27,928 nt of DNA from a virus. Taxonomy: Duplodnaviria > Heunggongvirae > Uroviricota > Caudoviricetes. The stretch spans positions 1 through 27,928 of IMG/VR virus record IMGVR_UViG_638341082_000007; one strand, written 5' to 3'. The notes below the pieces were generated by a model. That model was not told the DNA's origin. It saw nothing but the letters and a program-made list of their open reading frames with translations, and ran no database searches. Positions 5,833-8,597 of the stretch are shown here, one piece after another. How positions within the stretch are numbered: position 1 is the first letter of the stretch; each line of letters starts with the position of its first letter. The position numbers and the translations under genes are program-made.

Positions 5833-6887
5833 CAGAAATCCTCCTCAACATTTTTTTTCTTCCTGGCGGTAACAGGCTCGGGGAGATAAGCATCTGCCGG
5901 GCCAACCCGTAATTCAGTCGTCGTGCCCCGGTCGTCCTGGTTATAGGTAACTTCTGCAATCACCAGTTCATCATTATCAAAATTATTCAGCGGGTCGAAA
6001 ACGATGACAGATAACCCCGGACGCCATAACGCGCCACTGCCCTGCCGCCAGCCCTGAACCGTATATGTTGTCTCACGGGTAAGCGCAGCCCGTTGGCGCG
6101 CTTCAAATTCACAACGGGCCTTACAGGTTGCTGTCGTTGCTGTGCCTGACTGCTGAATCAACAAAGGGCGATAACGGGTCACGCCATTGTCCTGAATGGT
6201 CTGACGTATTGCGGCAATGGTGGCCTCACCAAAATCATCGTCGTTGCCCGGGCGCTGCCCACTGACCTGATATTCAGAAAACCGCTCTCTGATGCTTCTT
6301 TCCGTGTCACAGGAAAGAATATTCTCTCCCAGCACCAGTGCCGTCGCCGCTTTGCCTGTTCCGGGTTTCCCAAGAACCAGTCGCCCACATTCATCGTCAT
6401 AAGCCAGCGTCTGAACCTGCCCCAGCAACCGGTTAAGACAATCGGCAACAGTTTCGCCGTGTTCCGGCTGTGCATCAATCACCGCAGTCTGAGGCACGCC
6501 AGCATCAACAACAGTGATGCCAAATGGCGCAGCCAGTTCAGTGACTATTCTGAGCAGGTTTTTTCCGCTCTGCTGGAGTGGCAAAGCAGAGCAATCAACC
6601 AGATCGGCTGTTTTGCTTCGCCCGACAATCCCCATACTGACGCTGCTGGCGTCATAACGAAGCGGTAGTGCCTCCACATATCCGGTGAGCACGGGCTCAT
6701 CCCCGATAAGCACTTCAACCAGCTCACCATTTTTTATCCGGGGCTGATAATCCCGGCTGCCGGGCCAGCGGGTGGTAATGGCAACATTAAAATCCCGGGC
6801 AATACGGTTAATGCCCGCACTGATACGGACGGATGTCCAGCCGCCCCATTCGCGACCGGAAACCCGAAGTAAAACGGTATTATTCAT
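5832..6887 (-). CDS. Baseplate hub / late control D-like tail protein (Mu P/gp44-like)
   Basis: 351-aa ORF immediately upstream of the spike gene in conserved order. Confidence 0.6.
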   Translation of the reverse strand: MNNTVLLRVSGREWGGWTSVRISAGINRIARDFNVAITTRWPGSRDYQPRIKNGELVEVLIGDEPVLTGYVEALPLRYDASSVSMGIVGRSKTADLVDCSALPLQQSGKNLLRIVTELAAPFGITVVDAGVPQTAVIDAQPEHGETVADCLNRLLGQVQTLAYDDECGRLVLGKPGTGKAATALVLGENILSCDTERSIRERFSEYQVSGQRPGNDDDFGEATIAAIRQTIQDNGVTRYRPLLIQQSGTATTATCKARCEFEARQRAALTRETTYTVQGWRQGSGALWRPGLSVIVFDPLNNFDNDELVIAEVTYNQDDRGTTTELRVGPADAYLPEPVTARKKKNVEEDF

Positions 6888-7363
6888 CTGACGGGTACCC
6901 TTAATGTCCTGACCGGAACAAAGCCCGGGTGGGAGATGGCATTTCGATCCAGGATATCTGTTTCACGGGACGCATCGTCGTACCATGACGCAGCCAGAAC
7001 AAGTGCAGGCAGCACCTCCGCTGGCGTTCGCTCTGCGGTTTCCTCCGTCTGAACCAGACGCGCCTGAATATCCCGGTTCAGCTCTGTACGTAATGACGTC
7101 AGCTGAAAAAACAGCCCGTCGTCCATCGTGCGTCTGAGCTCCTGTTCAATCGCCGCATTCAGCGATTCGCGTATGATGGTAAGTTTTTCCCGCGTGGGTG
7201 GTTGCGCTGTTTCATTCTGTTCTGTGCTGGCTGCCACGCTGCCAAGCGCCGGATGAGAAACATGAATAATATCGGACTGACGTTCAGTGGAACCACCAAC
7301 AGCCACAACCGCCTGCTGATTTTTCACCAGACTTCCGGGTTGCGGCAGTGAAGATACCATCAT
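6884..7363 (-). pseudogene. Remnant of the tail gene normally upstream of the hub (tape-measure / DNA-circulation region), frame-disrupted
   Basis: 159-aa ORF whose first ~27 codons overlap the 3' end of the sheath ORF in another frame; tube, chaperone and tape-measure genes expected here are absent. Confidence 0.4.
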
Positions 7364-8597
7364 TTGCCAGCTTGTGACGTCCGTACTTGCTTGTGATGAC
7401 CGATTTCAGTTTGCGAAGAACATATGCACTGGTATGCAGAGTTTCACTGTCCAGATAGCTGTTGTCTGCCACGCCATACGCATTCTTTTTGTAGGTGGTT
7501 ACAGAACGCTGGATCCGCAACGTGCCGCCTTCCACATAAGCCGTCGCCACGCCGTGAGATAAAAGGGTCTGCTGCTCTGTCATGATGAATCGCTTACCTT
7601 TCGGTGCCGGAAGCATCCCCACCAGCTCCCCCGTCTGTGTCGGACGGGCAGGATCATTCCGGATAAATACCGCTTCACGGGCAAGGCGACTGGCAACCAG
7701 TTCATCGACAGGCGACTGGGTTTCTTTTTCGTAACCGGCAAGCGTGATATGTTGCTGATTATGCATATCTCCGGCACCAACCAGCTCTGACAGCGTTCCC
7801 AGTTTTGCGGTATAGACATGCCCGTATAACTGGCGCGCATAACTCCAGCGACCGCTGCTGTCATTCATTTCGGTCATCATCATATTGATGGAGGCGGCAT
7901 CGTTGAACGGCAGACCGATAAAATCGAATACCTCATCGCCCATAGCGGCAACAGCGGCGGTAAGATCAGGTGCTCCACTACCTGCAGTTCCGGCTTCCGT
8001 CACGACCTGAAGTCCCGCAGGCAGAATTTCACCACCACCAGAACCATAATAATTCAGGCAGACAGGTAGCCCGTTACCATACAGCCCCTTATGACGGGCA
8101 GTCAGTGTCACCACACCTGCATCAGATGACGCCGTAAACGGCAGGGTGATAACACCATTTACCGCTTCCTTAATCGCGGTGGCAACCGCAGTGGCATTAT
8201 CGCCATTCACCACAGGCACCTGTACACGGGAGCGCCCGACATACAGACTCAGGGTGCCGCTTTCCTCTGTTTCTCCGGTAACCGTCACCCTGACCGTTGC
8301 CGCCGCCCCTTTGGCTTCCGGTACCGCAATAACATACAGTTCACCGAAAGGATCTGTCTGACGGTATACTTCGACCATACGCGCCAGCTGGCTCCCCGCT
8401 CCACAAATCTGACGGGCATAATCTGCCGACGGCATCAGCACCAGGCTGTTAACCTCAATGGCAGCATCGTTGCCTGCATGCCCAATCAGTAATGCAGGCG
8501 CGCTGGTCACCGCTGTATTTGCCGCAGAATTGTCCATCTCGGCGTAGAACAACGGCACCAGCGTATTCGACGGAACAGCACTAAAACTTATTGTCAT
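7284..8597 (-). CDS. Contractile tail sheath protein (probably C-terminally altered)
   Basis: 437-aa ORF following the DUF2635-like ORF and the gp37-like gene in Mu-like order; its 3' end overlaps the remnant ORF by 80 nt, suggesting a deletion junction. Confidence 0.65.
   Translation of the reverse strand: MTISFSAVPSNTLVPLFYAEMDNSAANTAVTSAPALLIGHAGNDAAIEVNSLVLMPSADYARQICGAGSQLARMVEVYRQTDPFGELYVIAVPEAKGAAATVRVTVTGETEESGTLSLYVGRSRVQVPVVNGDNATAVATAIKEAVNGVITLPFTASSDAGVVTLTARHKGLYGNGLPVCLNYYGSGGGEILPAGLQVVTEAGTAGSGAPDLTAAVAAMGDEVFDFIGLPFNDAASINMMMTEMNDSSGRWSYARQLYGHVYTAKLGTLSELVGAGDMHNQQHITLAGYEKETQSPVDELVASRLAREAVFIRNDPARPTQTGELVGMLPAPKGKRFIMTEQQTLLSHGVATAYVEGGTLRIQRSVTTYKKNAYGVADNSYLDSETLHTSAYVLRKLKSVITSKYGRHKLANDGIFTAATRKSGEKSAGGCGCWWFH

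Follow-up and report, generated by a model that had tools for sequence, protein, structure and literature searches.

A stretch of 27,928 bp from the IMG/VR virus record IMGVR_UViG_638341082_000007 (positions 1 to 27,928, hereafter the window) carries most of a phiP27-like temperate prophage of Escherichia coli. The prophage is coded on the minus strand and combines an HK97-type head with a Mu-type contractile tail. In the window lineage, the centre of its tail operon has been lost by a clean deletion between two GGTA tetranucleotides. Compared with intact relatives, three essential virion genes were removed and two were broken, so the element belongs to the defective (cryptic) prophages. Very probably, a single microhomology-mediated deletion removed the centre of the tail operon, no infectious virions would be formed without help, and the late genes are otherwise intact. 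NCBI contig AAMK02000011.1 (assembly GCA_000168095.1) matches the window with 100% identity. AAMK00000000 is the genome of E. coli 101-1, an enteroaggregative strain (EAEC) of serotype O-:H10 (PMC2974192).

Size and junction of the deletion

The closest intact copies, the prophages of strains AST240 (NZ_AP043633) and AST262 (NZ_AP043637), were used for mapping. Together with the sister prophages of O166:H15 strains, they have 99.3-99.7% DNA identity over the whole window and share its chromosomal site and cargo, but a block of 3,873 bp is kept in them. BLAST aligns the AST240 prophage with window 27928-7355 at 99.59% identity over 20.6 kb and with 7358-2763 at 99.70%. Between these two collinear blocks the offset shifts by exactly 3,873 bp, the length absent from the window. 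In AST262, JNE21-009, and AST240 alike, window 7355 is the last position of the left block and 7358 the first of the right one. A reading made earlier from the sequence only had proposed a deletion of tube and tape-measure genes with a junction near 7280-7370; the alignments bear out the deletion and place the junction at 7355-7358. The same part is missing in comparison with the Stx2e-converting phage phiP27 (NC_003356 / AJ298298), where P27 24040-30600 corresponds to window 13917-7355 and P27 34511-38628 to window 7353-3236. P27 30601-34510 is absent from the window, and the remainder of the tail is collinear at about 95% identity. When phage records were searched by megablast, phiP27 was matched at 97%, and only by the query part upstream of window 7355.

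The 4-nt GGTA is common to the left breakpoint in the sheath gene and the right breakpoint in the tube-initiator gene. With the breakpoint marked by a slash, the left parental sequence is ...AATGATGGTA/CCCGTTTT and the right one ...AAGGGCGGTA/TCTTCACT, while the window reads ...AATGATGGTATCTTCACT across the junction. The half-queries flanking the junction accordingly overlap at query positions 497-500 in the search of complete E. coli genomes. According to our own calculation, microhomology of at least 4 nt has a probability of about 0.016 (about 1.6%) at a random junction, and the GGTA overlap thus points to replication slippage or microhomology-mediated joining as the mechanism. Base composition at the junction has no anomaly. 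A single illegitimate recombination between two GGTA copies 3,873 bp apart would have removed the centre of the Mu-type tail operon.

Both 500-bp flanks of the junction were matched in 52 of 5,426 complete E. coli genomes, always in two separate places; the flanks were adjacent in none of the 5,426. The intact sheath-to-hub block (at least 80% of the block, with the best matches at least 95% identical) was found in 48 of these genomes. Some E. coli have two P27-type tail modules (up to four matching places per genome), and a cousin tail module with about 77% identity is present in about 1,060 further complete genomes. Because 48 complete genomes keep the full module and none has the junction, the short arrangement is a derived state and not a chance pattern of open reading frames (ORFs). 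The exact 437-aa chimeric protein coded across the junction is on record in only four contigs, from the 101-1 assembly and the Logan assemblies SRR9418183 and ERR987384. The exact junction sequence had no match in species-representative genomes, IMG/VR viral contigs, or Joint Genome Institute (JGI) metagenome contigs, so these viral and metagenome collections give no sign of a circulating deleted form. No description of this deletion was found in the literature on the Logan runs and phiP27-like prophages.

Genes lost and broken

According to the AST262 annotation and tblastn, sheath residues 415-498, the whole tube, chaperone, and tape measure, and residues 1-306 of the tube initiator are lost. 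The intact proteins of AST262 are 498 aa (sheath), 118 aa (tube), 109 aa (chaperone), 637 aa (tape measure), and 463 aa (circularization protein, i.e. the initiator) long. The Pfam domains Tail_tube, Phage_TAC_7, PhageMin_Tail, DNA_circ_N, and most of Phage_sheath_1C were carried by the deleted genes. No homologue of the intact tube, chaperone, and tape-measure proteins was found in the window by tblastn (best E 0.38-0.86). The tail tube protein (PF10618, the equivalent of Mu gp40), with a best E of 0.38 in the window, is present in intact relatives; the tape measure and tail assembly chaperone, also absent from the window, are present in phiP27, AST262, and AST240. The early stretch of the prophage, about 8 kb past window position 27928, was followed in AST240 and five other close relatives. 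It codes for integrase, DUF4224, exonuclease, DicB, regulators, and an O-like gene, that is, for integration, recombination, regulation, and replication, and no tail genes, tube and tape measure included, were found there in any of the six.

The sequence-only reading had expected the Mu-like order of sheath, tube, chaperone, tape measure, DNA-circulation gene, and hub. This is the order in the near-identical intact prophages and in phiP27, where the chaperone is named "tail protein" and the initiator "DNA circularization"; the window is without the middle block. The sheath abuts the hub, as that reading had it, with only a frame-overlapping ORF of 159 aa (6884-7363) between them (Table 1). To this it has to be added that the sheath is itself truncated by 84 C-terminal residues and has 23 out-of-frame residues added. 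Codons 1-414 (window 8597-7356) are native, and in tblastn the intact 498-aa sheath aligns at residues 1-414 only, while codons 415-437 (IFTAATRKSGEKSAGGCGCWWFH) come from the tube-initiator gene, read out of frame. The C-terminal domain PF17482 is matched only at profile positions 2-38 of 104, below the threshold. With the C-terminal 84 residues (most of PF17482) gone, the product is not a Mu-type sheath with both linking arms. An in-frame fusion of sheath and initiator was considered and rejected: the deletion is 3 x 1291 bp long, but the two genes are in different frames. This is why the sheath reading frame closes with 23 nonsense residues and a stop at 7284.

The remnant recognized between sheath and hub is real, and it can now be specified as the C-terminal helix-rich third of a Mu gp43-type initiator, whose gene is broken too. 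Window 7357-6887 encodes residues 307-463 of 463 with 100% identity in tblastn. The DNA_circ_N domain is at residues 25-110 of the intact circularization protein, i.e. in the deleted part, and as residues 307-463 alone are left, an initiator with the N-terminal tube-like domain is no longer encoded. The 159-aa ORF overlaps the sheath ORF by 80 nt in a different frame, and its two leading Met codons (7363-7358, a chance ATG-ATG) are sheath DNA read in another frame. On direct reading, the 20 nt upstream of its start contain no Shine-Dalgarno-like motif. Its stop codon TGA overlaps the hub start (ATGA), and translational coupling into the hub gene may therefore be weakened too. Gene callers place differing small ORFs, of 80 aa and 147 aa, between sheath and hub.

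Table 1. Features at the deletion junction and in the adjacent tail genes of the window.
Feature	Position	Strand	Support and remarks
Gp48-like baseplate protein	2846-3805	-	Pfam; 319-aa ORF; DNA within a block 99.1% identical to AST262 (window 7358-1203)
Baseplate J / gp47-like protein	3805-4887	-	Pfam; full length
Gp46-like baseplate protein	4880-5293	-	Pfam; full length
Spike, gp45-like	5299-5832	-	Pfam; baseplate set PF06890, PF07409, PF04865, PF10076
Baseplate hub, Mu gp44/GpP-like, 351 aa	5832..6887	-	PF21683, PF22255, PF22630, PF21929; intact
Tube-initiator ("DNA circularization", Mu gp43 type) remnant, 159 aa	6884..7363	-	tblastn; no Pfam match
Deletion junction	7355..7358	-	4-nt microhomology GGTA, common to sheath (left) and tube-initiator (right) breakpoints
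Chimeric truncated tail sheath ORF, 437 aa	7284..8597	-	Pfam PF04984, PF17481; stop codon 7286-7284
Small DUF2635 gene	8594-8755	-	100% identical to intact relative
Tail terminator	8765-9328	-	PF23840; 100% identical to intact relative

Consequence for the tail

The sheath of the intact relative aligns in full length with the sheath of phage Mu (gp39, PDB 9khy; residues 3-490, E 2e-83), and its circularization protein aligns with the Mu "DNA circularization protein N" (gp43, PDB 9ki1). Mu gp43 is a hexameric tube initiator, the N-terminal tube-like beta-barrel of which begins tube assembly, while its C-terminal helix-rich/LysM domain touches the wedges (PMC11915804). Mu sheath subunits are tied together by N- and C-arms, and the tape measure fills the tube (PMC11915804). 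What the window keeps is the initiator's helix-rich C-terminal part and a sheath that lacks the C-arm; tube and tape measure are missing. The tail of Mu (gp37-gp48; PDB 9khy, 9ki1) is otherwise well recognizable, as the hub, spike, and gp46, gp47, and gp48 of the window match Mu-named Pfam families in the same gene order. The differences from Mu are the head and packaging genes, which are of HK97/P27 type here, the lack of a transposase in the window, and the deleted equivalents of gp40, gp41, gp42, and the N-terminal part of gp43.

The joining of the broken sheath and initiator genes out of frame has left a sheath with a nonsense tail, and all that survives of the initiator is its C-terminus, in an ORF started by a chance ATG and lacking an obvious ribosome-binding site. 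A baseplate may form, but nothing would be able to polymerise on it, since tube, tape measure, the initiator's tube-like domain, and the sheath's C-arm are all wanting, and infectious virions would not be formed unaided. The earlier suggestion that the prophage is probably tail-defective is supported by the deleted block and the broken genes; judged by its gene content and by what is known of Mu-type tails, the prophage almost certainly cannot yield infectious particles unaided. The capacities for excision, replication, head assembly, DNA packaging, lysis, and cargo expression may be preserved.

Genes retained in the late operon

All long ORFs at 184-16139 are on the minus strand and form the phage late operon. 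From 16139 down to 184, the head part is arranged as small terminase, large terminase, portal, protease, major capsid, connector, and head closure. The tail part follows with the tail terminator, DUF2635, sheath, 159-aa ORF, and hub, and after them the spike, gp46-, gp47-, and gp48-like baseplate genes, fibre genes, and a fibre assembly gene. The hub protein is 100% identical to its AST262 counterpart, and for the gp45-, gp46-, and gp47-like proteins the identity to this intact relative is 99.7-100%; the gp48-like ORF was left out of the protein-level comparison. The baseplate set is complete, with gp44 hub, gp45 spike, gp46, gp47, and gp48 all above the Pfam threshold. Thirty other proteins encoded by the AST262 prophage, ranging from DUF968 and the antiterminator over lysis, packaging, head, and neck to the baseplate, have full-length, gap-free counterparts in the window. 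Their identity is nearly always 96-100%; the fibre (61%) and the fibre assembly protein (42%) differ more. Host-range genes commonly show such divergence. The head, packaging, lysis, and cargo modules, described as intact in the sequence-only reading, appear so in this comparison too, as the compared genes are of full length with 96-100% protein identity to the intact relative.

In the relatives, the prophage reaches from an integrase beside yccA to just short of tRNA-Ser/hyaA (the yccA/serT site). The window starts about 140 bp from the prophage end on the tRNA-Ser/hyaA side and stops within the replication genes; proteins near its right end are common to many strains.

Alternative explanations

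The 101-1 genome is a multi-contig draft, with 91 contigs in the table of PMC2974192, and the junction is in no complete genome, both of which would suit an assembly artefact in a strain whose actual prophage is intact. Such an artefact is nevertheless very unlikely. The two Logan contigs examined (14.2 kb from SRR9418183 and 10.9 kb from ERR987384), from independent short-read assemblies, contain the same junction and are 100% identical to the window; separate read sets thus reproduce the junction, and misassembly is ruled out. A 4-nt repeat is moreover unable to collapse an assembly, and the flanks are unique sequence. Still harder to believe is an ancestral short form, or one that represents an alternative tail architecture, with the 3.9-kb block inserted in the other lineages. 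It would agree with only the bare length difference between the two forms. Both boundary genes are shorter than their full-length homologues in phiP27, SfI/SfIV, and Mu, the sheath having lost most of the conserved domain at its C-terminus and the initiator the conserved one at its N-terminus, and the block is present in the 48 genomes and in all reference phages. The truncated conserved domains refute an ancestral short form. A tailocin has its sheath, tube, and baseplate complete but no head genes, and a phage satellite has few or no structural genes together with helper-hijacking genes. Both classes were considered for the element and rejected owing to the full head and packaging module and the missing tube.

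Helper dependence would mean that DNA-filled heads are joined to tails from a co-resident Mu-type or SfV-type prophage and that the element is still transmissible. Head, neck, terminator, packaging, and lysis genes, all intact, would allow this, and donors of tails could be sought among the widespread cousin modules, the E. coli with two P27-type tail modules, or prophages such as that of the relative JNE21-009, in which a Mu-like prophage directly adjoins the phiP27-like one. The two Logan contigs end at window 2766, which falls in a 1-kb segment also carried by the JNE21-009 Mu-like prophage; these ends hint at a second copy of the segment in those genomes. We consider helper dependence improbable all the same. 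The terminator and neck interfaces must match for heads and tails to be joined, and the junction was not found in viral or metagenome collections. The kept baseplate genes and the out-of-frame fusion resemble an accident and bear no sign of adaptation. Equally improbable is the wider idea of helper-dependent persistence, or of the C-truncated sheath acting as a poison subunit against related superinfecting myophages. If true, either would explain why head, lysis, and baseplate genes have not decayed further.

Several points weigh against the reading of a single inactivating deletion that leaves the prophage without virions of its own. The tail-less phenotype is deduced from Mu-type tails, another prophage in 101-1 could supply tails, and the early region of about 8 kb is seen in close relatives and not in 101-1's own copy. 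The two Logan samples may also be one strain re-sequenced.

Relatives and other lesions at the same locus

PhiP27 is about 95% identical to the window in nucleotides and collinear with it from portal to baseplate, with blocks of 6.6 kb and 4.1 kb at about 95% identity and lysis, tRNA, and HNH blocks at 87-96%. The cos/HNH/terminase layout, the lysis genes, and the tRNA genes upstream of the cargo slot are common to both. PhiP27 differs from the window in its terminase and tail-fibre regions and in the early genes; unlike phiP27, the relatives of the window have lambdoid early genes and are integrated beside yccA/tRNA-Ser. The cargo of phiP27 is stx2e, and P27 17449-18971 (stxA2e/stxB2e) has no match in the window, where the cargo slot is occupied by a TerB-like gene, DUF3927, and an ORF without family.

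Three further copies of this prophage at the yccA/tRNA-Ser locus have independent lesions in the tail operon. As in 101-1 the tail operon is hit, but endpoints and mechanisms are different. In FDAARGOS_1077, a deletion of roughly 6 kb extends from the connector to the tape measure; in JNE12-007, an ISEc31 element is present and the part from mid tape measure to the fibre is lost. JNE21-009 is rearranged, with its Mu-like prophage inverted and placed directly after the circularization gene. AST240 is disrupted by an ISEc47 insertion in the fibre region, and AST262 has no lesion in this operon. As other copies at this locus are damaged in other ways, the deletion in 101-1 is one among several lesions that struck this operon independently, a pattern expected of prophage decay. 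The deletion is inactivating, specific to its lineage, and set in a known phage family; it is ordinary prophage decay with no unexplained feature. It has little weight beyond annotation: the phiP27-like prophage in 101-1, a reference EAEC strain, ought to be annotated as defective, and the 437-aa "sheath" and the 80-aa and 147-aa ORFs between sheath and hub should be taken as artefacts of the deletion and not as new genes. The junction adds one more base-resolved case of microhomology-mediated prophage decay, and together with the three other damaged copies it illustrates how quickly the tail operons of resident prophages are inactivated.

Cargo slot, tRNA genes, and fibre region

At window 19267-19913, just downstream of tRNA-Arg, a 616-bp segment lies between 31-bp direct repeats (about 19883-19913 and 19267-19297), in the slot where phiP27 has stx2e. 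It is present in AST240, JNE070796, and others, and missing in AST262. Its ORF (19302-19973; 187 aa in the AST240 annotation) has no match in Pfam or PADLOC, and the segment looks like a small indel-polymorphic cargo gene. The cargo slot also codes at 18560-19131 for a 141-aa TerB-like protein (PF05099, E 1.4e-7, partial match) and a 50-aa DUF3927 protein. Three tRNA genes are located upstream of the slot at 19925-21398, predicted by ARAGORN as Arg-TCT, one with the anticodon CAT, and Gly-CCC; the CAT-anticodon tRNA is tRNA-Ile in the records of the relatives and in phiP27 (ileZ). A DNA methyltransferase remnant beside the tRNA genes is a frameshifted pseudogene in the annotations of AST262 and JNE21-009, whose tail operons are without the deletion, so this damage predates the tail deletion.

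Between gp48 and the tail fibre gene, window 1773-3236 contains about 1.5 kb extra in comparison with phiP27. The gp48-like protein has a repetitive C-terminal extension of 125 aa (319 aa against 196 aa in P27), and its gene is annotated as a pseudogene in relatives by the Prokaryotic Genome Annotation Pipeline (PGAP). A 349-aa ORF (1773-2822) has no family match in Pfam or PADLOC; a 97%-identical inverted copy of it is next to the Mu-like prophage in JNE21-009. Window 2763-2771 is the exact site at which AST240 has an ISEc47 element of the IS66 family inserted in its fibre region, and the Logan contig ends at 2766 fall within it. The Logan genomes may have an insertion sequence or a second copy of the downstream segment at about 2766.

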